Below, piece after piece: positions 3,326 through 50,433 of a stretch of 64,000 nt of DNA. The translations under genes and the position numbers were made by a program. The stretch spans positions 76,323-140,322 of the forward strand of contig CAVQNU010000031.1 in NCBI GenBank assembly GCA_963714255.1, read 5' to 3'. A model generated the notes under the pieces. It worked only from the letters and a program-made list of their open reading frames with translations. It was not told the origin of the DNA and searched no databases. Positions within the stretch are counted from its first letter, which is position 1. Each line of letters begins with the position of its first letter. The DNA is from an uncultured Alphaproteobacteria bacterium. Its GTDB lineage: Bacteria > Pseudomonadota > Alphaproteobacteria > Acetobacterales > Acetobacteraceae.

Positions 3326-3330
3326 GGCGG

Positions 3331-5708: not shown

Positions 5709-5992
5709 TGAGTGAGGTGATCGCGCTGAGCCACGCCCGCGACGACACGATGTGGGCGGTGGTGGCCAATATCGGCAAGACCAGCCGGGTCGCCGACATC
5801 TACCCTACCCGCGGAGCGGCCCTGGCCGATCGCGCCTGGCGCGAACAGCAGGTGCGGGCCTACACGGCGCTTTTGGAGAGCTGCCGGCAAGGCAGGCCGC
5901 GCTACAGTGTCGTACCAATGCGGCGGGCGGATCTGCCGCGTAAATGGACCCCGCTGCCCGCGCTGGGCTTCCTGCGCGGGCAATTTTTTTGA
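5709..5992 (+). CDS. Hypothetical protein
   Basis: 94 codons from the ATG at 5709 with high GC3. No clear SD and no recognised motif. Confidence 0.35.
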
Positions 5993-6002
5993 AATCAAGA
6001 TG

Positions 6003-6060
6003 AAGGCCAGGGCGCTGCCCTGGACCCGCCAGGGCCGGGAGGCCCCTGGACCCCCGCTAC
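6003..6060. repeat. Copy of palindromic repeat family (half unit)
   Basis: gaaggccagggcgctgccctggacccgccagggccgggaggcccctggaccc. Confidence 0.7.
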
Positions 6061-6147
6061 ATAGCGAAGCTCGGCAAAAAGGAGGTCGGGTCTTGGCTGG
6101 CATTCCGAAGCGTTAACGGGCACACTCTTCGGGACAGAGGGGGAACA

Positions 6148-6756
6148 ATGAAGCGTTTTGTGGTATTCGTGGCGATGGGTTTGGCACTGTCCTCGCCGGG
6201 CAGCGCGGCGCAACTGCAAGGCGTGACGCTGCCGGATACCCAATCGGTCGGGCACACCGAATTGCGGCTCAACGGCATCGCGCTGCGGACCTACTCGATT
6301 TTGCGCATCCCGATCTACGTGGCCGGGCTGTACCTCGTTCGCCCGGATAGCGACCCCGACCATATCCTCCGCTCCGCCGAGATGAAGCTGTTGGATATCC
6401 GCTTCATCCATGATGTCGATGCGGCGAGCGCGCGGACCGCGTGGCAGGAAGGCTTCGACCAGAACTGCGTCGCGCCCTGTCAGCTTCGCGCGGCGGATGT
6501 CCAGCGGTTCCTCGCCAGCGTGCCCGGGATGCGCGAGGGCGACCGGTTCAGCATCCTGTTCACCCGCGACGGCGCCGAAATCGCGGCGAACGGCCGGTCC
6601 ATCGGCAGCATCGCTGACCGCGGGTTCGCCACCGCCATGCTGACCACGTTCATTGGTCCGCAGCCGCCGACGCCGCGACTGAAGCAGGAACTGCTTGGCG
6701 TGCACGATGTGAAGCAAGCCCAGGCCGCCGGCAGTTTTGCCCGCGCCCGCCGCTGA
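6148..6756 (+). CDS. Secreted chalcone-isomerase-like family protein
   Basis: Signal peptide MKRFVVFVAMGLALSSPGSAA. Family-typical LRLNGIALRTYSILRIPIYVAGLYL block. Confidence 0.7.
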   Translation: MKRFVVFVAMGLALSSPGSAAQLQGVTLPDTQSVGHTELRLNGIALRTYSILRIPIYVAGLYLVRPDSDPDHILRSAEMKLLDIRFIHDVDAASARTAWQEGFDQNCVAPCQLRAADVQRFLASVPGMREGDRFSILFTRDGAEIAANGRSIGSIADRGFATAMLTTFIGPQPPTPRLKQELLGVHDVKQAQAAGSFARARR

Positions 6757-6786
6757 CCTGGCAAACTCCCGGAACAGCCCGATGGC

Positions 6787-9102
6787 TCACGCGCGCACCG
6801 GGGCAATGATTGTGGTGCTTTCGATGTCCAGCGCCGCGCGCCGCAGATGGATCACATGGTACTCGCCGCGCAGCCAGGGGCCGAACTGGTCGCGGTAATG
6901 CGCACTGCCCGGCACGCCGGAATTGCCGATGTTCTGAATGGCGAGGAACGAGTCAGGCGCCGACAAATCGGCCACCATGCGGTACTCGGCGCCCGAGCCG
7001 GCGGCGTGCGGCGGTAACTCCCCACCGGTGTTGCGCAGCGTGTGCGATCCGCCGTCCACCGGCGCCGGCCCGATATCCAGCGCCCCGGCGAGCGCCGGCG
7101 AACTGAGCGGATGGCGCCAATGCGCCGTGTGCACCCGCCCCCAGTGCCAGCCCGCTGCGTTCTTGCCCAGACGCCGCTCCAGCGTGGCCACCGCCTGCCG
7201 GGCAACAACCCGCACCGCGGCCGGCGTGCCGGCGGCGAAGCAGGACAGGCCGTCCTGCTCCAGCAGCGCCGCCGCCAGCCCGGTCTGCTGCATGGTCAGA
7301 TCCAGCAGCCGCTCCGGCAGGTACTGGCTGGCGACGCTGCGCTGCCAGAGCGCCATGAAAGTTTCGAATAGCGTCGGCGCGGTGCTGTCCAGCGTATAGC
7401 GCCCGTCCCAGCCGGACAGAGCGGACACCAGGGCGGCGAGGCCGGGATCGGGCCGGCGGGCCAGATGGCGCAGAATGTGCGGCGCGAGCCGCACCGCCCG
7501 GGGGCTGAGCAGATCGTTCTGCAGGCTGATATTGGCGTCCAGGCCCAATGTGCCGGCGGCGAGGACCGCGTCGAGCCGTGCGCCGCGATGGCCTTGCGAA
7601 TAGGCGCCATAGATCGGCCGCTTATCATCCGCCGGCAGCGGCCGCTGGTTGGCGCTGGCGAGGAACCCGCAATCCGGATCGCGGCGGGTTGGAAGGTCCT
7701 CGAAGCGCAGATACGACACCCAGCGATCGGCGCCGTTGCCGGCATCGCGGTAGCCGGGGGTGACGCGTCCGCGCACCGGAACGCGCCCGGCCATCTGATA
7801 GCCGATGGTGCCGCCGGCCTCGGCAAAGACAAAGTTGAACACCGGCAGCGCCCAGTCGCGCAGGGTGCGGCGGAACTGCTGCCAGGTGCGGGCGCGCGAC
7901 AAGCCCACCAGGGCGCGCAGATCGTCCAGATGCTCCATGCCCACCCAGCGCAGCGACAGCGGCGGATCGCCATTGGGGCCCAGCGCCGGCACCAGCGCAT
8001 TCACCACCGGGCCGCGTAGGGTCGAGCGGATGGCAAGCGTGCGCGCCGCCTCGCCGCGCACATTGATCGTCACCTCGCGGGTGTCGAACCGAAGCCAGAT
8101 GTCGCCGTCGCGGTAGCGTCCGGGGTCGGCCGGGTCGACCTCCTCGCGATACAGGTCGCGGGTGGAGGCCATGTTGTTGGTGAGCGCCCAGGCCGCCGCG
8201 CCGTTGCTGCCCCACCACAAGCCGGGCAGGCCGGGATGGCCGCAGCCGGCGGCGGCGTCCTCGGGGCCGTGCAGGGCGAATTCATACCAGGACGAAGGCA
8301 CCCAGAAAGGCTGGTGCGGATCGCCGCAGACGATCGGCGTGCCGGTGCCGGTGCGGCTGGGGGAGAGCGCCCAGTTGTTGCTGCCGGTAGCATCGTCGGT
8401 GCCCGCGGCAGTGCCCGGCAGGATGACGTTCTCCGAGGCTTCCGGGGTCAGGAAGGGCGCGCGCAGCGGCTCCGGGAAGAAGCCCGCGCATTCGGCGGCC
8501 GCGAGCCGGTCGATGCGTCCGCTCAGCGACCACCAGAAGCCGCGCGCGATGGCCAGCACGCAGCGCGGCGTGAACGGCGCCGGACGGTAGGCCAGCAGGC
8601 GGAATTCGACCGGCAGGTCGTCGCCGGCGGCTTCGATGAAACGGTTAATTCCGGCGACCATTGCCGCGACCACCGCGCCGGTCGCCGGATCGATGGCGGC
8701 GGCCTCGCGGGTGCAAATCTCATCGAGACCAATGGTCAAATGGGCCGCATCGGCGGCAACATAGTCCGGGCCGAGGATTTCCGCCTGCTGCCCGAGCGCG
8801 CGGCGGCGGAGCCGGTCCATTTGCCACAGCCGGTCCTGCGCCATGGCGAAGCCCAGGCCGAAATACAGGTCTTCGGTGCTGGCGGCGTAAATATGCGGGA
8901 TGCCGGCGCGGTCGCGCAGGATTTCCACCGTGGCGCCCACCGGGCCCGCAAGCGTGCGGTCGCCAAGGACCGCGTGGCGGGCCAGCCAGGCATCGCGGGC
9001 AGCATTGAACGCGGCTGGAGCTACGCCCAGGTCCCGGCAGATCGCCTCGGGCGACCGGGCACCGCGCAGGGCGGCGAGAAGGGCGGCGTCGTCGAGTTGC
9101 AT
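6787..9102 (-). CDS. Penicillin/AHL acylase family Ntn-hydrolase
   Basis: 771 aa. Autoprocessing/nucleophile site GSNNWAL, GDPH block, and alpha-subunit motifs GIPHIYA and DRLWQMD. No N-terminal signal peptide visible. Confidence 0.9.
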   Translation of the reverse strand: MQLDDAALLAALRGARSPEAICRDLGVAPAAFNAARDAWLARHAVLGDRTLAGPVGATVEILRDRAGIPHIYAASTEDLYFGLGFAMAQDRLWQMDRLRRRALGQQAEILGPDYVAADAAHLTIGLDEICTREAAAIDPATGAVVAAMVAGINRFIEAAGDDLPVEFRLLAYRPAPFTPRCVLAIARGFWWSLSGRIDRLAAAECAGFFPEPLRAPFLTPEASENVILPGTAAGTDDATGSNNWALSPSRTGTGTPIVCGDPHQPFWVPSSWYEFALHGPEDAAAGCGHPGLPGLWWGSNGAAAWALTNNMASTRDLYREEVDPADPGRYRDGDIWLRFDTREVTINVRGEAARTLAIRSTLRGPVVNALVPALGPNGDPPLSLRWVGMEHLDDLRALVGLSRARTWQQFRRTLRDWALPVFNFVFAEAGGTIGYQMAGRVPVRGRVTPGYRDAGNGADRWVSYLRFEDLPTRRDPDCGFLASANQRPLPADDKRPIYGAYSQGHRGARLDAVLAAGTLGLDANISLQNDLLSPRAVRLAPHILRHLARRPDPGLAALVSALSGWDGRYTLDSTAPTLFETFMALWQRSVASQYLPERLLDLTMQQTGLAAALLEQDGLSCFAAGTPAAVRVVARQAVATLERRLGKNAAGWHWGRVHTAHWRHPLSSPALAGALDIGPAPVDGGSHTLRNTGGELPPHAAGSGAEYRMVADLSAPDSFLAIQNIGNSGVPGSAHYRDQFGPWLRGEYHVIHLRRAALDIESTTIIAPVRA

Positions 9103-9674
9103 GTCCGGCGGTCCTTCCGGTTTTTGGCCGCTTTTCTTGTCGGCCGGGCGGGAGCGCTTTCAGGCCTGGCTTAGTTTGACAAAATCACATTCCCGGCTGA
9201 CCGTGATGGGTTTGGATGCGGGGGCAAAGCGTTGGCCTCTGGGATCGCCTCACATTTTCGATTGAAAGGGGAATCTCTTGTCGAATCAATGGGGCTCCAC
9301 GTACATCCTGGAGCCTGGAAGGCGAAATGAGGCAATCAATTCGTCCGATGACGGTATGTATGTGCCGATGAACTGCGACGGCATCGCTGATCGATGGGAT
9401 TGCCGATGCATTCGCGCCGATGGCCGTTCGGTATGGCCCCTTCTTGCGCACCCGTGATCGCGACAACCCGCCAGCGGCCGGGCGGTACCGGAACGGGCTG
9501 GCGCAAACCACGGAAGGCCACATTCGCCGCGATGGCCGCCGTGGTTGATCAGGGCTGCGCGCAACTGTTGCAGCATTTGATCCTCAACTCGCCGTGGCGG
9601 CACAAGCCGGTGGTGGCGCAGATCGGCCAGGATGCCGACCGCCTGCCCGGCGGCGAGCCGATCGGTTGCCTTGT

Positions 9675-27176: not shown

Positions 27177-27385
27177 GGAAGGCCAGGGCTCTGCCCTGGA
27201 CCCGCCAGGGGGCAGTGGCCCCCTGGACCCCGTTACTTAAGCATTTGTCTTGAGAGGGGGGGTGAGGCGGTGAACCGGTTCACCGCCTCACCCCCCCCTC
27301 TCAAGACAAATGCCTAAAAGTAATGGGTTCCAAGGGCCTTTCGGCCCTTGGCGGGGTCCAGGGGCAGAGCCCCTGGCCTTCCTTT
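27177..27385. repeat. Composite ~210-bp inverted repeat (two repeat units flanking a unique palindromic core)
   Basis: Arms gaaggccagggctctgccctggacccgcc...cttaagcatttgtcttgagaggggggg and their imperfect complement. Core ggtgaggcggtgaaccggttcaccgcctcacc. Fills the whole gcvP / kinase-like gene spacer. Confidence 0.85.
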
Positions 27386-32891: not shown

Positions 32892-35717
32892 TTATCCGAA
32901 GGCACCCACCTCATGCGTCACCGCGGTCGCGATCTCGCGCACCAGGTCGAATTGCCGCCGCATCGGCGCGAACACCTGCGCGTGCTCGACCCCATAGGCC
33001 TGGGAAGCCCTGGGGCCGGCCGGCTCGGCATAGTCGCACTCCGCCGAAGGGTCGGGCGCCTCGGGGAAAATCTCCGCGAGCAAGGTCAGCGCCGCCGGAA
33101 TTTCCAGGCGCAGCACCGCCGCCTCCAGGTCGCGCCGGGTCAGGCCGTGGCGCGGCGAGAATTCCGGAATGCGCGTGGCCAGCAGCCAGATGCGATGGAT
33201 CAGTGCCAGCCGCAGCGCGTGCAGCAGCATCTCCCGCGCCCCCATCGCCGGCGCCTCCGGCCAGGCGGCCCGCAGCGCCAGATGGTCGGCCTGCACGCGG
33301 CGGAACATCGACTGCACCACCGCCCATAAATCGAGCCGCTCCAGCGCATGCGCCACCGACAGCAGCGCCTGCCGCCGGCCGGGACGACTGGTGTGGGCGG
33401 CGCGATCCAGCCAGGTGCCGGGATCGAGCGTGCCCACCACGGCGCGCAGCACGTCCAGATCGGAATGCGCCAGCGCGTGCGCGGCCAGATCGAGCGCGCG
33501 CCGGAACCGCCGGCTTTTGCGGCGCATGTCCGGGAACGTCTCGGGATGCCGCCCGGCCGCGACCCCCAGCCCCTGCAGCGTGTTCGCCATCCAGCCCAGT
33601 TGCTGCAGGATGGCGTTGTTCGGAATGGCGCGCAGGTCGCGCGGGTGGCGGATCATCGTCGCCGTGCCCATGCCGTCCGCCTGCCGCGCCGGCGGGCGCG
33701 AGCCGGTCGGGTCCAGCAGCGCCGGCCCGAACGCGCCCAGCAGCGCGCCATAGCCGGCATCGCTCACCAGCCCCTCCATGCCGACCCGGACGGTGGCAAA
33801 GAAATCCGACGCGAAGTCGGGATCGGCGTAGATCGGGTCCTCGATCGGGCCGGCGGCGGCATGGAACGCGTGCTCGGCGATGCGCGCCACGCTGGCCAGC
33901 GCCAGTTCCGGGGTGCCGAACAGCAAATAGCCATCGCCGCCCTGAAACGCGCTTTCCTCGCGCACCGGCAGCGACGCCTTGGTCAGCGCCCGCCGGCTGG
34001 CCGTCGGCGACAAATAGCGCAGCCGGTCGGCGAGCGAGCCGGGATGGGCGCCGCGGCCGACGCTTTCGCCATGGGTGTCGAACAGGATCACCTCGACGCC
34101 GGACACGCCGTGGCGCGACAACGTCGCCGCGATCTTCAGGCGCAGCCGCTCGATCAGGTAGCTGGCGGCGGTCTGGCCGACATAGCGTCCGGAATCGGAA
34201 TAGCCGAACTGCAGCGCCAGCCGTCCGGTGCGCTGTAGATACGCGCGCCAGTGCTGGCTGCGCAGCGCCTCGTCCAGCACCTCGGCGCCGCGTCCCAGCG
34301 CCTCGGCGGTCTCGAACAGCGGGCTGATTTCAACCTGGTCGGCGACCCCGAACAGCCGCGCCAGCCACAGCGCCGCCAGCAGCGTGTAGCCGCTCTCGGT
34401 CTCGGCGATCAGGAAGCGCACCGGCGCCGAACCGTCGATGTGCTTGACGATTTGCGCCACCGTCATCATCAGCCGCGCCGCCGAGGCTTGCTCGGCCAGC
34501 ATGGCGCCGAAATCCACCGGCACCGCCTCCACCGTGTCCAGCGCGGCGTTGATGCTGCTCAGCAGCGCGCGGCGGCGCGCGGGGTCTTCCGGCGGGTCGG
34601 CAATGCCGAGGCGCTGGCGCACCACGTTGTGGATCTGCGCCGCATTGAGCCGCACATGGGAGTGTGCGAGCGACAGGCCGTGCGCCACCAGTCCGGCGCG
34701 CGCGGTGCACAGGCGCAGCTGCTCGTCGTCGGTGGCGGCGGCGATCGCCGGGGCGAACAGCGCCAGCAGCGGTTCGGACGTGTGCAGCGCCGGCTCGGCC
34801 CCGGCCACCAATGCGCGCGCGAACCCGGCCACGGCGGGCGGATGCAACTGCGGCGGACAGGCCGCCTCCTGCGCGCCCACCGCCGCCAGCGCCTCGGCGA
34901 GCCGCGCCCGAATCGGGGCCGCGAGCGGCAGGTCCTCGAGTTGGAAGGCCAGCCGTTCCAGCTGCAGCCGCTTCATGCGCAGGCGCAACCGCAGAATGTC
35001 GAGCCAGCCGATATCGGTCCGCCCGTCAGTGTCGTAGCCGACCCAGCTGGTCATGATCAGCGGGCGGGGTGCCAGTTCGGTCCAGCGGTCCGGCCAGGAT
35101 CCGCGCGCCGCCGCCAGCAGGGCGGCATTGAACTGGTCCAGCGCATCCCGCCCGCGGGCGATGGCGGTGCTGGCCTGGGCGAACTCTTCTTCCAAAGTGA
35201 TACGCTGTGGCCGGTGCGAGGCGAAAAATTCGGCCGGCCCGCCGCAGGCCATCGCCGCCAGCGCCCGCGCCACCTCGGCCGGCAGGGCGAAGGTGGGGTG
35301 GGCGGTGAACACGGCGGCGTAGCGGGTGCGCTCGACCGCCTCGCGGAACTCCGCCCAGCGCACCGGGCTGTCGGACGGGTCGGGCCGCAGCACCACGCCG
35401 GCCACCCGCATCAGCGCCGCCTCGTTCTCAGCCCGGTCGGTGCCGCCCACGTAGCGCGCCAGGCGGCGGGCGCGGCCGGCGAAAGCGGCATCGCGCAGGT
35501 GGCGCACCAGCGCCCACAGCAACTCGTCGTCCAGCTGCCCGTCATCGATGCGCCGCGCGATCCCCAGCGCGACCGACAGCACCGGGTTGCCGAACGGGTC
35601 CTCGTCGGAGGCCCGCTGGGCGCGGGCCATCTTGGCCAGCAGCTCGGCCGCCACCGCCTCGATGCGCGCCTGTGCGGGCTCACCCGCCGCCGCCTCGGTC
35701 ATCGCCATATCGGTCAT
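32892..35717 (-). CDS. ppc: Phosphoenolpyruvate carboxylase
   Basis: ATG at 35717. VFTAHPTF and FGYSDSGRYVGQ motifs. About 941 aa. Confidence 0.9.
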   Translation of the reverse strand: MTDMAMTEAAAGEPAQARIEAVAAELLAKMARAQRASDEDPFGNPVLSVALGIARRIDDGQLDDELLWALVRHLRDAAFAGRARRLARYVGGTDRAENEAALMRVAGVVLRPDPSDSPVRWAEFREAVERTRYAAVFTAHPTFALPAEVARALAAMACGGPAEFFASHRPQRITLEEEFAQASTAIARGRDALDQFNAALLAAARGSWPDRWTELAPRPLIMTSWVGYDTDGRTDIGWLDILRLRLRMKRLQLERLAFQLEDLPLAAPIRARLAEALAAVGAQEAACPPQLHPPAVAGFARALVAGAEPALHTSEPLLALFAPAIAAATDDEQLRLCTARAGLVAHGLSLAHSHVRLNAAQIHNVVRQRLGIADPPEDPARRRALLSSINAALDTVEAVPVDFGAMLAEQASAARLMMTVAQIVKHIDGSAPVRFLIAETESGYTLLAALWLARLFGVADQVEISPLFETAEALGRGAEVLDEALRSQHWRAYLQRTGRLALQFGYSDSGRYVGQTAASYLIERLRLKIAATLSRHGVSGVEVILFDTHGESVGRGAHPGSLADRLRYLSPTASRRALTKASLPVREESAFQGGDGYLLFGTPELALASVARIAEHAFHAAAGPIEDPIYADPDFASDFFATVRVGMEGLVSDAGYGALLGAFGPALLDPTGSRPPARQADGMGTATMIRHPRDLRAIPNNAILQQLGWMANTLQGLGVAAGRHPETFPDMRRKSRRFRRALDLAAHALAHSDLDVLRAVVGTLDPGTWLDRAAHTSRPGRRQALLSVAHALERLDLWAVVQSMFRRVQADHLALRAAWPEAPAMGAREMLLHALRLALIHRIWLLATRIPEFSPRHGLTRRDLEAAVLRLEIPAALTLLAEIFPEAPDPSAECDYAEPAGPRASQAYGVEHAQVFAPMRRQFDLVREIATAVTHEVGAFG

Positions 35718-36004
35718 GCGCGCTCTGTCTCCAGTCGCATTGTCACCCCGGAGCCGATTTGATGCAAAGTTCGGTCCAGTGACCAGCATCACCTTGTTCC
35801 GTTCTCCCCTCGAGAGAGGGGGAGAAGAAAGCGGCGCCAAACCGTGTTCACATTTTGCGGCGCCAGTCACCGTTTCTTGGCAAACCGGTAGGAAATCCGG
35901 GTCAACCGTATGACAGTTCCGGCGGGAGCCTGCATGCCGATTCGTGGTCCGGGGCACTTCGGCGCCTGCCTGACGCTCTCCAACTTTCCCGGTCTAGGCA
36001 AAAA

Positions 36005-36269: not shown

Positions 36270-36413
36270 GCAAGCAAGGAAGGCCAGGGCTCTGCCCTGG
36301 ACCCGCAAGGGGGCAGTGGCCCCCTTGACCCCGATACTTAAGTAATGGGGTCAAGGGGGCCACTGCCCCCTTGCGGGTCCAGGGCAGAGCCCTGGCCTTC
36401 CTTGCTTTTCACA
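36270..36413. repeat. Near-perfect ~140-bp palindrome made of two inverted repeat units
   Basis: gcaaggaaggccagggctctgccctggacccgcaagggggcagtggcccccttgacccc / gatacttaagtaat / ggggtcaagggggccactgcccccttgcgggtccagggcagagccctggccttccttgc. Confidence 0.9.
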
Positions 36414-36637
36414 ACCCCCCACACCCCCCGCACCAGCGGCGTCGCATGCACAGCAAGCGCCCGCCGCAGCAACGCAACGGCGGCCGCCTCATCGCCCAGC
36501 GCCAGCAGATGCATCGCCGCCCCGGCCAGCGCCCGGCCTTCCTGTTCCGCGCGCTGCGCCGACTGCAGCTCGGCCCGGCACCGCCGGCAGGTATCGGCGC
36601 CGTTGAGCATGGCTCGGCAGAGCGGGCAGCGATCCAT
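36338..36637 (-). CDS. Zinc-ribbon (CxxC-x9-CxxC) mini-protein, last gene of the Hsp70 module
   Basis: MDRCPLCRAMLNGADTCRRCRAEL followed by an Ala/Leu helical segment. Start is 3 nt after the Hsp70 stop. The last ~25 codons are read from the palindromic repeat. Confidence 0.6.
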   Translation of the reverse strand: MDRCPLCRAMLNGADTCRRCRAELQSAQRAEQEGRALAGAAMHLLALGDEAAAVALLRRALAVHATPLVRGVWGVVKSKEGQGSALDPQGGSGPLDPIT

Positions 36638-36640
36638 CGC

Positions 36641-38380
36641 TCAGGTCTCAAGGAAGAACAGAAGATCCTGAAGCTGGCCGCGCGCCGTCTCCAGGGCCGC
36701 GCCGTCGCCGCTGCTCCTGGCATCCCGGATGGCCTCGATCAGGTCGATGATCTCGGCGCGATCCTCCTCGCCGGCATCATCCAGCCTGGCGCTGGCCTTG
36801 CCCAGCAGCGCCTCGAGCGCGGCGTCGCCGGCAGGCCCGGTCGGCTCCCCGTCCGTCTGCTCCGCTTCGTCGAACAGGGCGCCGATCCGCTGGCGCGCCT
36901 CGTCGAGCTGCGCCTTGTCGTAGCGCGAGGTGGCCTTGTCGATAGTGATGCGCCGCTCCAGCCCGGTCTTTTTCTCCCGGGCCGACACCTGCAGGATGCC
37001 GTCACGGTCCAGTGCGAGGTCGAGGATCACCGGGTTGCCCGCCGGCGCGCGGCTGAGCCCGTCGACGCGGAACTCGCCGATCTGGATGTTCTCCAGGGCA
37101 TCGGGGTTCTCGCCCTGGTAGATCTTGACATCGACGCTGGTCTGCTCGTCGGCGACGGTGAAAAACACTTCGCTCCGGCGCACCGGGATGGGCGTGTTTT
37201 TCGAAATGATCGGGATGTATTTGTATGGATAAAGGTCGCCGTTGAATTCCCCGATCGCGCTGGTGCCGAACGTGTAGGGGGTGACATCGACCAGCACGGC
37301 CGACACCTCCGCCCCCGTCATCGCCGCCCCCTGGATCGCCGCCCCCATGGCGACGCACAGGTCCGGATCGACCTCGCCGCGCGGGTCGCGGCCGAACGCC
37401 TCCGTCAGCCGGCGCCGGATCAGCGGCGTGCGGGTGGCGCCGCCGACCAGCAGAATCTCGTCCACCTGCGAGGAAGCCAGGCCCGCCGATTCGAGCGCGA
37501 TATGGATCGCCCCGAGGGTTTCCTCGATGAACGGGGTAATCATCTCCTCGTAGTCGTCGCGGCTCAACTCCAGGTCGAGATTGACCGGCTTGCCGTCCTG
37601 CTCGGTGAGGTATTCCTCGGCGATGCGGGCGAACGGATGGGCCGACAGATGTTTCTTGGCGTCCTCGGCGCTGCGCAGGATGCGGGCCATTGCCTGCGGC
37701 CGGTCGGACACGTCCACGCCGTGCTTGATCTTCAGATGGTCAAGCACGTGCTCGACGATCTTGTGGTCGAAATCATCGCCGCCGAGATGGTTGTTGCCGT
37801 GGCTGGAAATCACCTCCACCACGCCTTCCTCGATGCGCACGACCGAAACATCGAACGTGCCGCCGCCGAGATCGTAAACAAGGATACGCTTGCCCTGGTG
37901 CTGGGCCGCCTCATAGACCAGTGCCGCCGCGGTGGGCTCGTTGATGATGCGCGCCACCTCCAGCCCGGCGATCTCGCCGGCCTCGCGCGTCGCCTGGCGC
38001 TGGGTGTCGGAGAAATAGGCGGGCACGGTGATGACTGCGCGGCGCACCGGCCGGCCCAGCCGTTGCTGGGCGATTTCCTTCAGGCGCGACAGGATGATCG
38101 CCGAGATTTCCTGCGGGCTGTAGTCGCGCTCGCCGAGGCGGACCCGCGCGTCGCTTCCCATCTTGCGCTTGATCGAGCGCACGGTCCGCTCGGGATACAG
38201 CAGGAACTGGTTGCGCGCCTCCTCGCCGACCAGCAGCTCCCCGGTTTCGGAAAGCCCGACCACCGACGGCAGGATCACCCGCCCCTGCGCGTCGGCGAGC
38301 ACCTCGGGGCGGCCATCGCGATACAGGGCGATTTCCGAGTTGGTGGTGCCGAGGTCGATGCCGACGATTTCGTCCGTCAT
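36641..38380 (-). CDS. Hsp70-family ATPase, short HscC-like paralog
   Basis: 579 aa. GIDLGTTNS, AVITVPAYFSD.QRQAT, INEPTAAAL, DLGGGTFDVS, LVGGATRTP, and an SBD-beta segment (IPIISKNTPIPVRRSEVF..VKIYQGEN). Short helical lid ending DLLFFLET with no EEVD-like tail. Confidence 0.9.
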   Translation of the reverse strand: MTDEIVGIDLGTTNSEIALYRDGRPEVLADAQGRVILPSVVGLSETGELLVGEEARNQFLLYPERTVRSIKRKMGSDARVRLGERDYSPQEISAIILSRLKEIAQQRLGRPVRRAVITVPAYFSDTQRQATREAGEIAGLEVARIINEPTAAALVYEAAQHQGKRILVYDLGGGTFDVSVVRIEEGVVEVISSHGNNHLGGDDFDHKIVEHVLDHLKIKHGVDVSDRPQAMARILRSAEDAKKHLSAHPFARIAEEYLTEQDGKPVNLDLELSRDDYEEMITPFIEETLGAIHIALESAGLASSQVDEILLVGGATRTPLIRRRLTEAFGRDPRGEVDPDLCVAMGAAIQGAAMTGAEVSAVLVDVTPYTFGTSAIGEFNGDLYPYKYIPIISKNTPIPVRRSEVFFTVADEQTSVDVKIYQGENPDALENIQIGEFRVDGLSRAPAGNPVILDLALDRDGILQVSAREKKTGLERRITIDKATSRYDKAQLDEARQRIGALFDEAEQTDGEPTGPAGDAALEALLGKASARLDDAGEEDRAEIIDLIEAIRDARSSGDGAALETARGQLQDLLFFLET

Positions 38381-39051
38381 GGCGTGTCTCCTTTGCTCGC
38401 GTCGCCCTTGCTGACGATCACTTCCGCCGTGCGCAAGACCTGGTCGTTCCAGAGGAAGCCGCTACGGACTTCCTCGATCACGACACCCGCCGCCGCCGAA
38501 CCGCGCGGCGCGGTGCCGATGACGCGCGCCAGCCGCGGGTCGAACGGCCGTCCGGCCAGCTTCGCGGCTATAACCCCCCGGTCGAGCAGAACCTGGTCGA
38601 GCCGCCGCACCGTCATGCGCAGGCCTTCCTGCCAGGCCGCCCCGTCCGGCCGGCTGCGGCGCAGCAAGCGCTCGTACCAGCGCAGCCGCGCCACGGCCGA
38701 CAGCGCCAGCGCCGCGACCAGCCGGTCGCGCAGGTCGATGACATCCAGCAGCAGCGGCCGCAGCGCCCCCTGCGCCTGGTCACGGGTATCGGCGCGGGTC
38801 CGGTCCAGCTCGCGTTGCAGCGCGGTCTGGCTGGCCTGCAACGCCTCGAACACGGCGCGGAACTGATCGAGCGCGTCCTTCACCAGGCGCGATTCCGTGC
38901 GCACCTCGGTGCGCAGCCCCGCGATTTCGACAAAGACGGAATAAAGATCGGCGGTCTCCGCGGTTTCGTCGGGCGGTTCCGGCGCGTCCTCCGCCGTGTC
39001 CAGATAGGCGCTGAAGCGGTCGAGCAGCGCCTGCTTGATATTATCGTCCAC
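38377..39051 (-). CDS. GrpE-like nucleotide exchange factor
   Basis: 224 aa. Coiled-coil N-terminal half and C-terminal beta domain GRPFDPRLARVIG...VIEEVRSGFLWNDQVLRTAEVIVS. ATGA overlap with the Hsp70 gene. Confidence 0.75.
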   Translation of the reverse strand: MDDNIKQALLDRFSAYLDTAEDAPEPPDETAETADLYSVFVEIAGLRTEVRTESRLVKDALDQFRAVFEALQASQTALQRELDRTRADTRDQAQGALRPLLLDVIDLRDRLVAALALSAVARLRWYERLLRRSRPDGAAWQEGLRMTVRRLDQVLLDRGVIAAKLAGRPFDPRLARVIGTAPRGSAAAGVVIEEVRSGFLWNDQVLRTAEVIVSKGDASKGDTP

Positions 39052-39391
39052 CTGCGTCCTCTCCGGGCCGGCCTTCGTCGGTCGCGGCCTGCGTGATCCC
39101 TTCGGCGAGCAGTGCCGCCACGGCCTGTTTGGTCGCCCGCGACGTCCCGGCGGAGGCCGGCTGCAGGGCGGCCAGGCTCAGCCGCGACAGGGCGGCGGCG
39201 TTGGTGTGCAGCAGCTTCATTTCCAGCCGCTTGCGCTCATCGCTGAGCGCCTCATAGGCGGCACGGTAGGCGCGGAACCGCTCCGGCGCGCGGTCGGGCG
39301 GGAAGTCACGCACCAGGGCAAGATAACGGCGCCTGATCTCGGCATCGGTGGCATCCTCGTCGACGCCGAGAGTCGTGAACGGATCGGGCAT
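39041..39391 (-). CDS. J-domain protein with a non-canonical PPD in place of HPD
   Basis: DPFTTLGVDEDATDAEIRRRYLALVRDFPPDRAPERFRAYRAAYEALSDERKR matches J-domain helices I-III. Codons ttc ccg ccc gac were verified on the minus strand. Confidence 0.7.
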   Translation of the reverse strand: MPDPFTTLGVDEDATDAEIRRRYLALVRDFPPDRAPERFRAYRAAYEALSDERKRLEMKLLHTNAAALSRLSLAALQPASAGTSRATKQAVAALLAEGITQAATDEGRPGEDAGGR

Positions 39392-41907
39392 CAGAACGGG
39401 CTCCGCTGGCCAGCCCGGCTCTGGCGCGGCCGGCCGCCATCCAGCGCCGCCGCGACCATCGCCTCGGACAGTTTCCGCAGCAGCGGCTCCGGCATCCCGG
39501 TTCCCACCGGCGAGGTGCGAAGCTGCTGCATCAGTTCTGCGACCGCACCTTCCCGGCCGAACTCGCCCACGAGATCGCGCAGGTTTTTCGCCTCGTCCTT
39601 GGGCATGCCGGACATCATCGACTGGATCATCACTTCTATCAGGTCGGCATTGAGGCTGTCCGGGAAGCCATCCAGCAGGTCATCGTCCAGCCCCGGCCGC
39701 CGCCGCCTTGCATGGGTTCCATAACCCGGCCCGTCGAGGAATTGTTCGATCCGGCTGGCGGTGCGGAAATCCTGCCGCTGCCCGGCCGCATTGGCCATCT
39801 GCACCAGTTCGTCCGTTTCGGACACGTAGAGCCGGTCCGGATTGCCCAAAGTGCGGGCAACGATCTGGTGGAACCGCCAGACCGGGTTGCCGGGCTCGCG
39901 CTGGCGCGCCGCCCGGGCGTACTCGCCGAGCAGATCGAAGGCATCGAACCGCACGAGCGTCTCCGCCAGGGTTTCGAATTCGGCCACCGGCCATGCGATG
40001 GCGGCGCCCTGGCGCAGCCACGCCTGCATGCCGGCCAGCAGACCCGCAATCGCCCGCTTGGCCTCGCCGGCCTCCGGCTGGCCGAGGGCGGACACCACCG
40101 CCATGACCGCCTCGCGGGTCGGCGGCGTCTCGCGGGCCTGCGCCAGCTCGCGGCGGATCAGCGTGGCCCCGGTGCCGGTAAGTTTCATCAGATCGGCTTC
40201 CAGGGCGGCGCGGAACCATCCGGCCGCCCCGCCGCCGGCGGTCGCCACCCCGTCGCGCAGCCCGGCCTGGGCCTGCTCGCCCTTGCCGGACTGCAGGTCG
40301 ACCAGCCCGCGGACGATGCGCAGCAGCGCGCTGGGGGCGTCCGCCCGTTCCCATTCGGCCGCCGCCGCCAATTCCTTCGCGGCCAGGTCGAGGCGTTTGG
40401 ATCGCACCTGCTTGCGGGCGTGGGCCACCTGCAACTCGATCATCTGCCGGCGCACCGCGGGGTTGATCGGGTCGATCTTCAGCAGCCGGTGAGCAAATCC
40501 GGCGGCTTTCTTATAAGCCTTGCGTGCCACCGCCAATTCCGTGGCGGCAAGCAGCACGCCGGTGTTTTCCGGGAAGCGCTGCACCGCCTCATCGGCCAGC
40601 CGGTGCCAATCCTTGAGCCGCGAGTCCTCGCGATAATGCCGGATCAGCTCCAACACGCCAGCCACGTAGTCCGGATCGGCCTGGTAGCTGCGTTCCAGGT
40701 AAAAGATTTCCGGATCGGTGAAATTATCGTGAGGATCCCCCTCGATCTCCCGGTGCTTGGCGGCGAGGGCGGCAAGGTGGCGGAAGATCACGCCGCGCGA
40801 CAGGCTGGCCTGTGGATCGGCGCCGGGGATCGACTCGGCGGCTGCCAGCCAGGCGACTTCCGCCTTGCGCCAGTCGCCGCGCGCTTCGGCGGCAAGCGCC
40901 TGGATGCGGTGACGTTCCGGCGCCGTGAGCGGACCGAAGCTTTTCTCGAACTGCGCCACCCGGTCCGGGATTTGCGGCAGCAGGTTCAGGCAGGCGCTGC
41001 GGACCTCGGCCCGGGGCAGGTCCTGCTGCTTCAGCAGCAAAGCGAACAGGGTGCCCGGACCACCGCGCGCGGCTTCGGACGAACGGGCCAGGAATTCCGA
41101 CGCGCCGGCCGGCAGGCCGCGCGTCTGGGCCACGAAGACCTGCTGTGCTGGCGTCAGCCGGTTCCAGCCATCGGCATCCAGGCCGCGCCCGCCGGGCAGC
41201 GCCGCCTCAACCGCCTGGCGAAACGGGAAGAACGGCGAGGCCGGCGCAATTGCCTCCAGCAGCCGCCGCGACCGGTCGGCGTCCGCGGGCGCGGCACTGA
41301 TGCCTTTCAGCAGCAGGCGCACCGGCCTGAACGCGGAGCGCAGCGAAATCCGGTTCAGCTGCCGATCCAACTCTTCCGCCGGTGCGCCATTGACCCAGGC
41401 GGCCAGCGCATCGCGCGACGCGGCCGCCCATTCGACCCAGCGCCCCCGTTCGGAGCCGACAGCACTGGCAGGACCCGGGCGCTGCGGGACAGCGACGAGC
41501 AAGGCCGCGCCGAGTTCCTCCAGCGCCGCCCGCTCGGCGGCGGGCAGCGGGCTTTCGCCGCCGGCGTAGTTCAGCACATGTGCCGCCGCCTTCTGCTGCT
41601 GCCCGTCGCGGATCAGGCAGCGCAGATACAGCAGGGGATCGCGCAATGTTCCGTCCGGTGCGATTGTGTTCTCGAGGACCATGGCGGCCTCTTTAAACAT
41701 GGCTTTCGCGGCCAGGGTACTGGCACGCCCTTGGTAGGCGTCGGCGAGCGCGGCCTTCCACTCCGGGCGCGGGTCTTGCCGGACTGCCAGCTTGAACAGG
41801 TCGACCGCCTCCTTGAACCGTCCCAGCTGCAGCGCCTCGGCGGCGCGCGCGGCCAGGGTGCCGACCGGCACGGACGGCGACGGTCCGCGCCGCTGGGGTT
41901 TTTTCAA
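39391..41907 (-). CDS. Large TPR-like helical-repeat protein (838 aa), first gene of the Hsp70 module
   Basis: TTG start at 41907 preceded by GAGGA. Repeated Ala/Leu/Arg helical hairpins (e.g. ALQLGRFKEAVDLFKLAVRQDP, ARKAYKKAAGFAHRLLKIDPINP). No catalytic motif seen. Stop shares one base with the J-gene ATG. Confidence 0.75.
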   Translation of the reverse strand: MKKPQRRGPSPSVPVGTLAARAAEALQLGRFKEAVDLFKLAVRQDPRPEWKAALADAYQGRASTLAAKAMFKEAAMVLENTIAPDGTLRDPLLYLRCLIRDGQQQKAAAHVLNYAGGESPLPAAERAALEELGAALLVAVPQRPGPASAVGSERGRWVEWAAASRDALAAWVNGAPAEELDRQLNRISLRSAFRPVRLLLKGISAAPADADRSRRLLEAIAPASPFFPFRQAVEAALPGGRGLDADGWNRLTPAQQVFVAQTRGLPAGASEFLARSSEAARGGPGTLFALLLKQQDLPRAEVRSACLNLLPQIPDRVAQFEKSFGPLTAPERHRIQALAAEARGDWRKAEVAWLAAAESIPGADPQASLSRGVIFRHLAALAAKHREIEGDPHDNFTDPEIFYLERSYQADPDYVAGVLELIRHYREDSRLKDWHRLADEAVQRFPENTGVLLAATELAVARKAYKKAAGFAHRLLKIDPINPAVRRQMIELQVAHARKQVRSKRLDLAAKELAAAAEWERADAPSALLRIVRGLVDLQSGKGEQAQAGLRDGVATAGGGAAGWFRAALEADLMKLTGTGATLIRRELAQARETPPTREAVMAVVSALGQPEAGEAKRAIAGLLAGMQAWLRQGAAIAWPVAEFETLAETLVRFDAFDLLGEYARAARQREPGNPVWRFHQIVARTLGNPDRLYVSETDELVQMANAAGQRQDFRTASRIEQFLDGPGYGTHARRRRPGLDDDLLDGFPDSLNADLIEVMIQSMMSGMPKDEAKNLRDLVGEFGREGAVAELMQQLRTSPVGTGMPEPLLRKLSEAMVAAALDGGRPRQSRAGQRSPF

Positions 41908-42255
41908 AAGCGGGTCCTCGTCAGGCGTGCCGGGGGCATCAGCAGTTGCGTCCGTTATTGATCAGTGCGCCGCCATGGCCGGCGGCCCGAGTGTCCGATA
42001 GGTCGCCAGCGACGAATCCTCCCCCGTGCAGGTGTCCGCCCGTCCCTGCGGGGCGAATCGAATCGGGTAAGTTTAGCCGCACCTGCCAGCCAATACGAGC
42101 CGCCCGGGCAATCGGACAGGGCGATTGGCGGAAGTGAGACACCGGGCGGCGGCGGCAACCGGGGCACGAGATTTTCTGGCATTCTCGCTGCCGTAATCGG
42201 ACGGTACGCGACCGTCCTCACGCGCGCCGCGCGGTGCCGCAGCCAGAAGGGCAGC

Positions 42256-43232: not shown

Positions 43233-44240
43233 TTGTCCGCGACCGGTCCTACCCTCGTCACCGGCGCCACCGGCTTCGTCGGTTCCGCCGTCGCCCGCTG
43301 CTTCGCCGCGCGCGGCCATGCGCTGCGGCTGCTGGTGCGGCGCGGCAGCGACCGGCGCAATATCGACGGGCTCGCGGCGGCGACAATGGAGGGCGACCTG
43401 ACCGATCCGGCATCGCTCGCCCGCGCCGTCGCCGGCTGCCGCTACGTCGTGCATGTCGCCGCCGATTACCGCATCTGGGTGCCCGATCCCGCCGCCATGC
43501 TGGCGGCGAATGTCGGGGGCACGCTGGCGCTGATGCGGGCGGCGCTGGCAGCCGGGGTGGAGCGGGTGGTGTATTGCAGCAGCGTCGCCGCCCTCGGCCT
43601 GACCGGCGATGCGACGCCCGCCGATGAGCGCACGCCGGTGAGCCGGGACAAGATCGTCGGCATTTATAAGCAATCGAAATACGACGCCGAACAATCGGTT
43701 CTCGAACTTGTTCGCTCGGAGGGGCTGCCGGCGGTCATCGTCAACCCCGCCGCCCCGGTCGGCCCGCGCGATATCAAGCCCACCCCGACCGGCCGCATGA
43801 TCGCCGATGCCGCCGCCGGCCGCATGCCGGCCTATGTGGAAACCGGGCTGAACATCGTGCATGTCGACGACGTGGCCGAGGGCCATGCGCTGGCGCTGGA
43901 ACAGGGCGGCATCGGCGAGCGCTATATTCTCGGCGGCGAGAACCTGACCATGGCGGCGCTGCTCTCGGTGGTGGACGACGCCTCCGGCAGGCGGCGGCGG
44001 CGGGTGCGCCTGCCGGTGGGCGCAGTCTGGCCGGCCGCGCTGGCCAGCGAGGCGGCGGCGCGGATCACCGGCGGCGAGCCGCGCGTCGCCCGCGACCATT
44101 TGCGCATGGCGCGGAAAACCATGTTCTTTTCCTCCGCCAAGGCCACGGAAGCGCTGGGCTACCGCCCCCGCCCGGCATGGCTTGCCGTCGCGCACGCGAT
44201 CGCCTGGTTTCGCGATCATGGCATGGTTCCGCCGGTATGA
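43233..44240 (+). CDS. hpnA: Hopanoid-associated NAD-dependent sugar epimerase
   Basis: VTGATGFVGSAV Rossmann motif and YKQSK catalytic motif. Position at the head of the hpn cluster. Confidence 0.75.
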   Translation: MSATGPTLVTGATGFVGSAVARCFAARGHALRLLVRRGSDRRNIDGLAAATMEGDLTDPASLARAVAGCRYVVHVAADYRIWVPDPAAMLAANVGGTLALMRAALAAGVERVVYCSSVAALGLTGDATPADERTPVSRDKIVGIYKQSKYDAEQSVLELVRSEGLPAVIVNPAAPVGPRDIKPTPTGRMIADAAAGRMPAYVETGLNIVHVDDVAEGHALALEQGGIGERYILGGENLTMAALLSVVDDASGRRRRRVRLPVGAVWPAALASEAAARITGGEPRVARDHLRMARKTMFFSSAKATEALGYRPRPAWLAVAHAIAWFRDHGMVPPV

Positions 44241-45353
44241 TGGTGCTCGCGGGGACGGCGCTGCTGGCCTGGCTGTATCTCGCCGCCTGGCATGGCGGGT
44301 TCTGGCGCGACGGCGAGCGCCTGTCCGCCTCCCGCCCCGCCCGCTTCCCCGCGGTCGCCGCCGTGGTGCCGGCCCGCGACGAAGCCGACATGGTGGCGGC
44401 CAGCCTCGGCAGCCTGCTCGCGCAGGACTATGCCGGGCCGTTCCGGGTCGTGCTGGTGGATGATGGCAGCACCGACGGCACCGCCGCCATCGCCCGCGGA
44501 CTGCCCGGCGCGGAGCGCCTGACCGTGCTGGAGGGGACGCCACGCCCGCCGGGCTGGGCGGGGAAACTCTGGGCAGTGCACCAGGGGCTGGCTGTCACCG
44601 ACGAGGAATTCCTTTTTCTCACCGATGCCGACATCGTGCACGATCCGGCGCATCTCTCCGCCCTCCTGGCCCAGGCCGAGCGAAGCGGCGCGGAGATGGT
44701 CAGCGAAATGGTTGCGTTGCGGTGCGAAAGCCGCGCCGAACGGGCGCTGGTGCCGGCCTTCGCCTATTTGTTCGCTCTGCTGTATCCGTTCGCCTGGGTC
44801 AACGCGCCGCGGCACGCCACCGCGGCCGCGGCCGGTGGCACAATGCTGATCCGCAGGCAGGCGCTCGATCGCATCGGCGGCATCGCCGCCATCCGCGAGC
44901 GCACTGATCGACGACGTGGCGCTGGCGGCGGCGGTGAAACCGGGCGGACCGGTCTGGCTCGGCCATTCGCGTCTGGCGCGCTCCATCCGGGTCTATCCGG
45001 GGTTTGCCGATATCTGGCGCATGGTGGCGCGCTCGGCCTATGTGCAGCTGCGCCATTCGCCGCTTCTTCTCCTTCTGACCACGCTCGGGCTGGGGCTGGT
45101 ATTCGTCGTGCCGCCGGTGGCCGCGCTGTCCGGGCCTGCGGCGGCGCGCGGCTGCGGGCTGGCGGCGTGGTTGATCATGGCGGGGACGTTTCTGCCCACG
45201 CTGCGGCGGTTCGGTCCGTCGCCGCTCTGGGCAGCGGCGCTGCCGGCCATCGCTGTTTTCTACCTCGCCGCAACGATCGGCTCGGCCGTCGACCATCATC
45301 GCGGCCGCGGCGTGGTGTGGAAGCGGCGCGCCTATGCAGGAAGGCCGGCATGA
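44237..45353 (+). pseudogene. hpnB: Hopanoid-associated glycosyltransferase HpnB, frame broken at about 44900
   Basis: GT2 motifs VPARDEA, VDDGSTDGT, LTDADI. After GGIAAIRE the conserved continuation ALIDDVALAAAVKPGGPVWL... is in the +1 frame (ORF 44916-45353). One extra base at about 44900. Confidence 0.75.
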
Positions 45354-46189
45354 ACGACGCGGCGACCGATGTCGAAGCCTGGTCCGGCAAGGACCGGGGC
45401 GACGAGAATTTCCCGGTCGGTTCGGCGCTGATCAGCGCCCGGCTGCGCCCGCATATCCACGCCTTCTACGCCTTCGCCCGCAATGCCGACGATATTTCCG
45501 ACAGCCCGGTGCTGGACGCCGCCGACAAGATCGCGCGGCTGGATGCCATGCAGGACGTGCTGCTGGGCCGCCGCGACACCGGCAGCCCGAGCGCGCTCCG
45601 CCTGCGGGCGAGCCTGGCCGAAACCGGGGTGAGCCCCGCGCACGCGACCGATCTGCTGGTGGCGTTCCGCCGCGACGCGACCAAGCTGCGCTATGCGAAC
45701 TGGGACGAGCTGATGGACTATTGCCGCTTCTCCGCCATGCCGGTCGGCAGGCATGTGCTGGAGCTGCACGGCGAGGACCGCGCCACCTGGGAAGGGTCGG
45801 ACGCGCTGTGCGCGGCGTTGCAGGTGCTGAACCATTTGCAGGATGCCGGCAAGGACCTCGCCGGCCTCGATCGCTGCTATCTGCCCGCCGACCTGCTGGC
45901 GCGCCACGGCGCGCGCGTGGAGGATGTGCGTGCGCCCTCCCTGTCGCCGGGGCTGCGCCGCGTGTTCGATGCGCTGCTGGACCAATGCGACGGGCTGAAC
46001 CGGGTGGCGCGCGACCTGCCGCGGCGCACCCGCGACCGAAGGCTGCGGCTGGAGACTTCGGTGATCCTCGGCCTGTCGCACCGGCTCGCCCGCCGGCTGC
46101 GGCGCGGCGACCCGCTGGCCACGCGGGTGAAACTGACCAAACCCGATGTCGTTGCCAGCCTGCTCGGCGCGCTGCGGTTCGTGCCGTGA
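45350..46189 (+). CDS. hpnC: Squalene synthase HpnC (squalene/phytoene synthase family)
   Basis: ATGA overlap with the hpnB end. ENFPVGS and FYAFARNADDISD Asp-rich motifs. Confidence 0.8.
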   Translation: MNDAATDVEAWSGKDRGDENFPVGSALISARLRPHIHAFYAFARNADDISDSPVLDAADKIARLDAMQDVLLGRRDTGSPSALRLRASLAETGVSPAHATDLLVAFRRDATKLRYANWDELMDYCRFSAMPVGRHVLELHGEDRATWEGSDALCAALQVLNHLQDAGKDLAGLDRCYLPADLLARHGARVEDVRAPSLSPGLRRVFDALLDQCDGLNRVARDLPRRTRDRRLRLETSVILGLSHRLARRLRRGDPLATRVKLTKPDVVASLLGALRFVP

Positions 46190-50289: not shown

Positions 50290-50433
50290 TCGGGGCGTTG
50301 CCCCGAACCCCACCAGGGGGCTTTGCCCCCTGGACCCCCACCAAGGGCTTTGCCCCTGGACCCCTTTCTTAAGTAATGGGGTCAAGGGGGCCACTGCCCC
50401 CTTGCGGGTCCAGGGCAGAGCCCTGGCCTTCCT
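50290..50433. repeat. Palindromic repeat family copy (about 2.5 units)
   Basis: ...ccaccagggggctttgccccctggaccc...cttaagtaatggggtcaagggggccactgcccccttgcgggtccagggcagagccctggccttcc. Ends 3 nt before the hpnG start. Confidence 0.85.

Follow-up and report, generated by a model that had tools for sequence, protein, structure and literature searches.

Three types of prokaryotic Hsp70 are recognised, DnaK, HscA and HscC (PMC8215388), and the existence of further insulated J-protein/Hsp70 systems is expected (PMC9596805). The hallmarks of HscC listed by Mayer (2021) are a deletion in lobe I, an insertion of 4-8 amino acids in loop L1,2 and a shortened lid (PMC8215388). Here we describe a compact five-gene module located in a 64,000-nucleotide stretch of DNA (referred to hereafter as the window) from an uncultured alphaproteobacterium of the family Acetobacteraceae (GenBank assembly GCA_963714255.1, contig CAVQNU010000031.1, positions 76,323 to 140,322 of the forward strand). 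The module encodes an Hsp70 with its own GrpE-type nucleotide-exchange factor (NEF) and J-like protein, together with a giant helical solenoid and a zinc-ribbon protein. Judged from sequence comparisons, it is a conserved, horizontally mobile and self-contained accessory Hsp70 system that looks insulated, built around the solenoid and distinct from the DnaK, HscA and HscC systems, an overall reading that we place midway between doubt and acceptance.

The module covers positions 36338-41907 of the window (5.6 kb) and consists of five co-directional genes on the minus strand. The first gene (39391..41907) starts with a TTG codon that is preceded by GAGGA and encodes a protein of 838 amino acids, which its open reading frame (ORF) and an AlphaFold2 (AF2) model portray as an all-alpha solenoid resembling tetratricopeptide repeat (TPR) proteins. 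It is followed by genes for a 116-amino-acid J-like protein matching the Pfam DnaJ profile, in which (F)PPD replaces the HPD motif (39041..39391), for a 224-amino-acid NEF of the GrpE family with a GTG start codon (38377..39051; Pfam GrpE), for a 579-amino-acid Hsp70 assigned by Pfam, tree and alignment to a distinct clade that is sister to HscC (36641..38380), and for a 99-amino-acid zinc-ribbon protein (CPLC-x10-CRRC) with a TPR-like helical hairpin (36338..36637; ORF and Pfam). The solenoid stop codon and the J start codon have base 39391 in common, the J and GrpE genes overlap by 11 nt, the GrpE and Hsp70 genes share a 4-nt ATGA overlap, and a 3-nt gap (TGA-GCG-ATG) separates the Hsp70 and zinc-ribbon genes. 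Five packed minus-strand ORFs with these junctions had been described in the initial annotation, whose coordinates proved accurate throughout, and each of the five translations (5/5) has an exact counterpart among publicly available gene predictions.

Searching a genome collection with the 838-amino-acid protein of the window yielded 10 loci, most of them labelled Acetobacteraceae and including one from Rhodopila globiformis DSM 161. At all seven Acetobacteraceae loci with enough DNA (7/7) the five genes were present in order, with varying flanks. An exhaustive HMMER search widened the solenoid family to 913 clusters (50% identity), whose full-length members extend to an identity as low as ~26%, and the named matches of a distant-member profile comprised Nitrosococcus, Chromatiales, Competibacteraceae, Candidatus (Ca.) Venteria, Ca. 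Accumulibacter, Sterolibacteriaceae, Sulfuricellaceae, Paraburkholderia and a metagenome-assembled genome labelled Phycisphaerales. Genes for the TPR, DnaJ, GrpE, HSP70 and small proteins followed each other in that order in 5/5 distant genomes with called genes, among them Nitrosococcus halophilus (Nhal_2514-2518), Ca. Accumulibacter, Ca. Venteria and Paraburkholderia; at one of these five loci the fifth ORF was present but uncalled, and the junction overlaps were seen again at some distant loci.

A metagenome scan with a tighter solenoid profile contributed another 80 loci. Synteny was counted over 96 loci (60 clusters at 80% identity) with hidden Markov models (HMMs) made from confirmed module proteins, the denominators being those loci or clusters with enough downstream DNA. 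A J gene follows the solenoid gene at 78/79 loci (52/52 clusters), a GrpE gene at 69/70 loci (47/48 clusters), an Hsp70 gene at 57/67 loci (41/45 clusters) and the zinc-ribbon gene at 48/53 loci (35/37 clusters). Gene order and strand are constant throughout the 96 loci, whose hosts are Alpha-, Beta- and Gammaproteobacteria, and the synteny check suggested for the homologs of the 838-amino-acid protein hence finds all four partner genes linked to it in these three classes. Since the same order recurs in dozens of independent lineages, the five-gene arrangement is far beyond chance, and since the flanking genes vary among the loci, the unit is formed by the five genes.

The same five-gene layout is present on a 40-kb plasmid of Nostoc sp. 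UHCC 0302 (NZ_CP151103.1, positions 3209-9211), where it adjoins genes for a tyrosine recombinase/integrase and an IS607 transposase. The Nostoc J, GrpE, Hsp70 and fifth proteins match the module HMMs; its solenoid appears to be a positional equivalent, with homology unproven. A tblastn search of phage and plasmid records with the solenoid gave no matches, and the Nostoc plasmid copy surfaced only via its Hsp70. The Nostoc solenoid has the C-terminus ...KKRKGRRKGGFQELF, and a long insert separates the two Cys pairs of the Nostoc zinc ribbon.

The Hsp70 of the window had been characterised beforehand as short (579 amino acids), ending in DLLFFLET, non-housekeeping and possessing a substrate-binding domain (SBD) of the HscC type, and both the length and the terminus are correct. 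Pfam identifies the protein as HSP70 (8.8e-149). It stays below the NCBIfam cut-offs for DnaK (545.8 against 648 bits for NF001413; 532.6 against 822.55 bits for TIGR02350) and also below the HscA equivalog cut-off, the HscA score being lower than the DnaK score, and it carries no HscA-type N-terminal extension. In an alignment of E. coli DnaK, HscA and HscC with 38 non-redundant module members, the segment corresponding to DnaK 74-104 is spanned by seven residues in 38/38 members, which represents a lobe-I deletion (DnaK 76-101) with the same boundaries as in E. coli HscC. Loop L1,2 of the SBD-beta contains an 8-residue insertion, again in 38/38, and is longer, at 23 residues, than in DnaK (15) and HscC (19); the lid is short, ends level with that of HscC and is not extended by a disordered tail. 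The predicted HscC-type features of the SBD are thus present. In contrast to both HscA and HscC, from which the GrpE signature loop (DnaK ~284-299) is deleted in the alignment, the module members retain this loop at full length in 38/38 cases, with 16 residues as in DnaK versus 10 in HscC. The catalytic residues D8, T11, K70, E171, D194, T199 and D201, the linker residues L391 and D393, and the J-contact residues R151, R167, N170 and T173 are invariant among the 38 members. Identity to HscC amounts to 32-36%, and within the Acetobacteraceae the module Hsp70s are 81-87% identical to each other. On this alignment, the protein is an HscC-like hybrid that retains a DnaK-type GrpE loop.

Its position outside DnaK was also apparent in a neighbour-joining (NJ) tree of 28 taxa and 575 columns with 200 bootstraps, in which three HscC sequences and mostly plasmid-borne DnaKs served as references. 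The module Hsp70s formed their own clade (182/200), the DnaK clade excluded them (200/200), and they joined HscC in 180/200 replicates and DnaK in only 20/200. Within the limits of this small sampling and of the NJ method, they stand beside the three HscC sequences, not among them. At every proteobacterial or metagenomic locus with a complete Hsp70 gene, the C-terminus reads L-[AS]-[DE]-x-[ILV]-[FY]-[FY]-L-x-x, and in the Nostoc Hsp70 D-F-L-Y-Y is followed by extra residues. DLLFFLET aligns to the last lid helix of DnaK; hence, docking of this peptide in a TPR groove is not favoured.

Profile searches also recognised DnaJ and GrpE and gave weak results for TPR and the zinc ribbon. The J-like protein of the window (Pfam PF00226; 4e-10, 40.1 bits versus a cut-off of 27.8) has its J domain at residues 3-56, followed by a C-terminal extension of ~50 amino acids (~40-50 residues in the family), and the zinc-finger and C-terminal domains of DnaJ are missing; small targeting J proteins are likewise built from a J domain and an extension. 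A weak NCBIfam match connects it to a cold-adaptation J-protein model listed as ActJ. It had been described as degenerate, and this can now be refined, FPPD being one form of a family-wide PP[D/E] signature: in 54 clusters, the HPD columns contain PPE (37), PPD (14), SPE (2) or PAE (1), so that PP[D/E] accounts for 51/54. Because HPD is found in 0/54 clusters, the loss of the histidine is an old trait under selection and not local decay; the acidic residue pairing with R167 is retained in the family. The GrpE protein, which diverges from housekeeping GrpE, matches its Pfam model (7.1e-20, 71.8 bits versus a cut-off of 25.8), falls below every NCBIfam GrpE equivalog cut-off and has an N-terminus (MDDNIKQALLDRF) that agrees with those of its orthologs. 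Weak double-zinc-ribbon and weak TPR matches to Pfam were obtained for the zinc-ribbon protein, and CPxC-x9-11-CxRC is present at every locus with a detected zinc-ribbon gene.

For the solenoid, described at the outset as a TPR-like giant lacking an enzymatic motif, Pfam reports weak N-terminal TPR matches and no enzymatic domain. Its AF2 model (pLDDT 84) is all-helical, with repeat helices up to ~residue 725, a disordered linker (728-756), a small C-terminal domain of three helices (754-823) and a basic, disordered tail (...RQSRAGQRSPF). Foldseek comparison with the PDB retrieved generic TPR scaffolds only (IFT-A, APC/C, Ctr9, Ski3, TTC7) at TM-scores of at most ~0.28 and typically ~0.2, and a PDB sequence search with the solenoid gave no match.

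The C-termini of 119 full-length representatives of the solenoid family were inspected for tail motifs. The motif Q-x-x-[LMIF]-F was present in 46/119 in its loose form versus 0.11 expected, and in 15/119 in its strict form versus 0.01 expected. It is usually situated at the extreme C-terminus or before DD/E and is preceded by a Pro/basic-rich disordered linker; exact QLDLF, QLELF, QLNLF and QMDLF sequences occur, and position 2 is G, K or R in most motif-bearing tails. An alternative class of tail at the same position consists of [FL]P[FL]PLP and then a poly-basic run. Precedents for Hsp70 handles are QLMLT in clathrin (PMC2830701) and LPPVK in IscU (PMC9596805), and the consensus for binding to the beta-clamp is Q-phi-x-L-F or QL[S/D]LF, with positions 1, 4 and 5 critical. 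QxxLF coincides with this consensus and also resembles QLMLT; it might serve as a handle for the Hsp70 or bind the beta-clamp. The interchange of tails of differing hydrophobic chemistry at one position fits a peptide-binding SBD, and we prefer the handle since these chemistries interchange among orthologs and a co-varying partner is encoded in the operon.

The proposal of a dedicated chaperone machine, made in the initial annotation, gains support from the conserved five-gene linkage and the distinct Hsp70 clade. In such a machine, the solenoid would be a fixed component, either scaffold or client. The J-like protein would dock on the solenoid or on the zinc-ribbon protein and position the Hsp70 through a co-evolved, non-canonical contact between PP[D/E] and R167; the Hsp70 would then clamp a flexible segment, most plausibly the C-terminal tail of the solenoid. 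Hydrolysis might remodel, disassemble or switch a solenoid-based assembly, and the dedicated GrpE would reset the cycle.

Several observations weigh against this picture. Two metagenomic lineages have kept the solenoid, J and GrpE genes and lack the Hsp70 and zinc-ribbon genes at the locus, which means that the solenoid can persist without an adjacent Hsp70. The 846-amino-acid Nostoc solenoid gave only a weak, in-register N-terminal match in hhalign (probability 54%), and the tree is weakened by the use of NJ on 28 taxa with mostly plasmid-borne DnaK references. Losing the HPD histidine normally abolishes ATPase stimulation, and with this residue lost the J-like protein might have a regulatory instead of an activating role. 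As to the tail, the window solenoid has no QxxLF and ends in ...GQRSPF, the Acetobacteraceae tails being basic with variable termini. Where QxxLF is present, the tails are acidic, with D/E at position 3 of the motif and DD or E behind it; acidic residues are reportedly disfavoured in DnaK-type substrates, a finding ascribed to Rudiger in 1997, and such tails would fit a beta-clamp motif better than a DnaK-type substrate.

The two lineages devoid of a linked Hsp70 gene differ in what occupies its place, where the genes are opposite-strand or unrelated. Judged by eye from the translations of locus L065, an ATPase-like protein and a second uncharacterised protein take the place of the Hsp70 and zinc-ribbon genes in the lineage L065-L067 plus L069. 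In the lineage L093-L095 plus L097, a pair resembling nucleotidyltransferase/HEPN-type toxin-antitoxin genes is found there (by eye, L093), and the tail of the solenoid is degenerate (QPDLLG).

The acidic QxxLF tails and the exact QLDLF matches keep alive a rather improbable explanation, in which QxxLF binds DnaN and the tethered machine remodels or evicts replication or repair proteins at the replisome, or monitors the replication of invading DNA. The agreement with the clamp consensus, with QLDLF-type ends that follow a disordered linker, an arrangement that many clamp partners share, the frequencies over expectation given above, and the suitability of D/E at position 3 for the clamp all speak for it; the basic stretch before the motif could contact DNA, and loss of HscC in E. 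coli causes UV sensitivity (PMC8215388). However, position 2 is mostly G, K or R and not aliphatic, large parts of the family, including the clade of the window, have proline-rich plus basic or basic plus aromatic tails that would be unfit for the conserved clamp pocket, and no conserved replication or repair neighbours were found at annotated loci. We also think it improbable, if a shade less so, that the module is an anti-phage or conflict system whose solenoid senses an invader protein, with the Hsp70 cycle acting as a threshold switch or as an effector that sequesters or unfolds a phage or host protein. A patchy distribution across phyla and the Nostoc plasmid copy beside integrase and transposase genes would suit such a role, as would the location of several loci among toxin-antitoxin, AbiE, HEPN/MNT, DUF262-like and transposase genes (noted by inspection). 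Among predicted conflict systems, the GAP1-N2 GTPase type joins Hsp70, GrpE and DnaJ/TPR fusions (PMC7159879), and CoCoNuT III pairs an Hsp70-like domain with HEAT repeats (PMC11090510). Membership in a known defence system was ruled against by PADLOC 2.0, which assigned none of the five proteins to a family (0 families). Moreover, there is no recognisable effector (nuclease, protease, TIR, pore or an NTPase besides the Hsp70) and no GTPase or McrBC partner, the high conservation of the Hsp70 in the Acetobacteraceae gives no sign of diversification, no phage copies were found, and the neighbours in the window are housekeeping genes (PEP carboxylase, epimerase, glycosyltransferase, squalene/phytoene synthase).

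That the module is a general stress accessory, an extra Hsp70/GrpE pair for proteotoxic stress whose solenoid is not the target but widens the range of clients or directs them in the manner of a Hop/CHIP-like co-chaperone, is unlikely too, though we would give it somewhat more weight. The catalytic machinery is intact, a divergent HSP20 gene lies upstream of the module in Ca. Accumulibacter, the operon of MxDnaK2 and MXAN_6672 in M. xanthus offers a precedent for an accessory DnaK/GrpE pair (PMC11019930), and the Sel1/TPR-like ybeT is found in the neighbourhood of hscC in E. coli. Nevertheless, a scan of 54 upstream regions for a sigma-32-type consensus gave results no better than shuffled controls, and Rfam detected no thermosensor RNA. 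The His-less J domain and the strict 1:1 linkage to a single giant protein favour a dedicated function over a general one, and the C-terminus of the Hsp70 corresponds to a structured lid helix and not to a free, EEVD-like tail. There is next to no chance that we are dealing with an unusually arranged housekeeping dnaK/grpE/dnaJ locus, or with a decaying duplicate. Hsp70, GrpE and J domains do occur together, and the 64-kb window contains no other Hsp70, GrpE or J gene. Yet the DnaK score (546 versus 648 bits), the placement outside the DnaK clade, the HscC-type indels and the short, tailless lid effectively refute this explanation, and decay is excluded by the strict conservation of functional residues in 38 lineages. 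The J protein of 116 amino acids without the zinc-finger and C-terminal domains is likewise at odds with it, and the Nitrosococcus ortholog is named 'Hsp70 family protein', not DnaK, by the Prokaryotic Genome Annotation Pipeline.

Outside the module, a 136-nt palindrome at positions 36272..36407 (68-nt arms, 97% complementary) had been thought to bracket the locus on one side. The palindrome itself is real; as a module-specific boundary it is ruled out, since a repeat search found further copies at 27181 and 50380 that make it a dispersed repeat. Three copies of the GC-rich repeat GGTCAAGGGGGCCACTGCCCCCTTGCGGGTCCAGGGCAGAGCCCTGGCC are present in the 64 kb (27181-27229, minus strand; 36272-36407; 50380-50428, plus strand), consistent with an element of the repetitive extragenic palindrome (REP) or miniature inverted-repeat transposable element (MITE) type, and the hairpin may mark the end of the transcript. 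In the window, the zinc-ribbon ORF runs into the repeat at its 3' end, which produces a non-conserved protein tail: orthologs share only the first ~75 residues, and the last ~23 codons come from the repeat element. Rfam analysis of the palindrome returned spurious miRNA-hairpin matches only.

On the other side, the divergent spacer of ~350 bp reported in the initial annotation was measured, from ORF positions, at that length (41908..42255); it extends to a divergent alpha/beta-hydrolase gene, and the promoter is presumed to lie here. No sigma-70 consensus and no terminator were found on the coding strand, and Rfam detected no regulator in the spacer. The flanking genes comprise a phosphoenolpyruvate (PEP)-carboxylase-like gene on one side, and alpha/beta-hydrolase and NAD-epimerase genes plus a glycosyltransferase/squalene-phytoene-synthase ORF on the other. 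The first of these, a 1021-amino-acid ORF downstream of the module (32892-35957, minus strand), matches PEP carboxylase over ~220 residues with 60 bits and may be a divergent PEP carboxylase or have an over-extended N-terminus. The NAD-epimerase gene (43233-44240) is followed by an ORF of 670 amino acids (44177-46189, plus strand) that combines a family-2 glycosyltransferase (residues 63-233) with a squalene/phytoene synthase (residues 407-655); together they look like a hopanoid-type cluster. In Ca. Accumulibacter cognatus, the divergent HSP20-family gene (7077-7604) lies directly upstream of the module and is the sole chaperone-related neighbour seen among the loci.

The statement that no characterised system has this composition has held up: the public database names for the module proteins are generic only, no NCBIfam or curated family specific to the module was found, and no publication describing it was found, including under the locus tags Nhal_2514-2518. 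For the additional insulated systems that are expected, the module is a tangible candidate with a wide distribution: it comprises hundreds of sequence clusters, is found in no fewer than three classes of proteobacteria and also occurs on a cyanobacterial plasmid. Its hybrid Hsp70 bears on how dependence on a NEF was lost or kept during Hsp70 specialisation, and a His-less J family combined with an Hsp70 that keeps the HPD-contact residues amounts to a natural experiment on J-Hsp70 activation. The solenoid, obligately linked to the machine and equipped with a putative tail motif, would be an unusual, fixed giant partner. The module is directly testable, being compact and self-contained and occurring in the cultured strains Rhodopila globiformis DSM 161, Nitrosococcus halophilus Nc 4 and Nostoc sp. 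UHCC 0302. Probably too bold is the conjecture that it constitutes a fourth class of bacterial Hsp70 system, either with a clamp-tethered solenoid or with a self-assembling solenoid that the Hsp70 uncoats via a C-terminal handle. If it were true, the clamp tether would put an ATP-driven remodelling machine on the replisome, and the self-assembling solenoid would provide bacteria with a parallel to clathrin uncoating.

When the module, taken as a dedicated and insulated Hsp70 system, is compared with systems already described, the GAP1-N2 conflict systems (Kaur et al., 2020) resemble it in that Hsp70 and GrpE are co-encoded with J-domain/TPR partners outside a housekeeping context. They differ in having a GTPase and an FNIII-repeat protein at their core and in being found chiefly among Actinobacteria and Firmicutes, and neither a GAP1-N2 GTPase nor an FNIII protein was present among the called neighbours at six annotated loci and in the window. 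CoCoNuT type III systems contain CnuD, an Hsp70-like unit paired with alpha-helical (HEAT-like) repeats. However, the ATPase of CnuD is degenerate, whereas that of the module is intact; these are McrBC-type systems without GrpE or J proteins, and no McrB-like GTPase or CnuC was found at annotated module loci. MxDnaK2 (MXAN_6671) is an accessory Hsp70 that shares a bicistronic operon with its own GrpE, MXAN_6672, but it is described as a DnaK paralog and no J protein is encoded nearby. The J-like protein has a parallel in Shewanella AtcJ, a short J protein in which a brief extension follows the J domain and whose gene shares an operon with those of its specific partners; AtcJ differs in working with the housekeeping DnaK and in having a functional J domain.

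With regard to the proposed handling of the solenoid, clathrin offers an alpha-solenoid with a flexible C-terminal handle of the Q-L-x-L type, a docking J protein (auxilin), and disassembly by an Hsp70 (Hsc70) and a NEF (Hsp110). This likeness is an analogy only: clathrin is eukaryotic, auxilin has HPD, and self-assembly of the module solenoid is a supposition. The HscA/HscB/IscU system likewise consists of an insulated Hsp70, a small dedicated J protein and one client with an LPPVK handle, to which the solenoid tail class [FL]P[FL]PLP plus K/R bears a loose resemblance. Unlike the module Hsp70, HscA lacks the GrpE loop and works without a NEF; HscB has HPD, and the client is a small Fe-S scaffold encoded in the isc operon; the module contains no isc genes.

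HscC shares with the module an Hsp70 of 550-580 amino acids with the DnaK 76-101 deletion, the L1,2 insertion and a short lid without a tail, and forms the sister clade; dedicated J partners are encoded nearby, with the TPR-like Sel1 gene ybeT in the neighbourhood. The differences concern, above all, the NEF: HscC has no GrpE loop and is thought to be GrpE-independent, whereas the module has the loop in 38/38 members and a GrpE gene in the operon in 47/48 clusters. In addition, DjlB and DjlC are large, tail-anchored membrane proteins, as opposed to the module J proteins of ~100 amino acids with PP[D/E], HscC has neither a solenoid of ~800 amino acids nor a zinc-ribbon gene, and the identity of 32-36% is low. 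In E. coli K-12, djlB, ybeT, ybeU, djlC and hscC are located at positions 677415-683393. An association between a specialised Hsp70, J proteins and a helical-repeat protein may therefore be an older theme.

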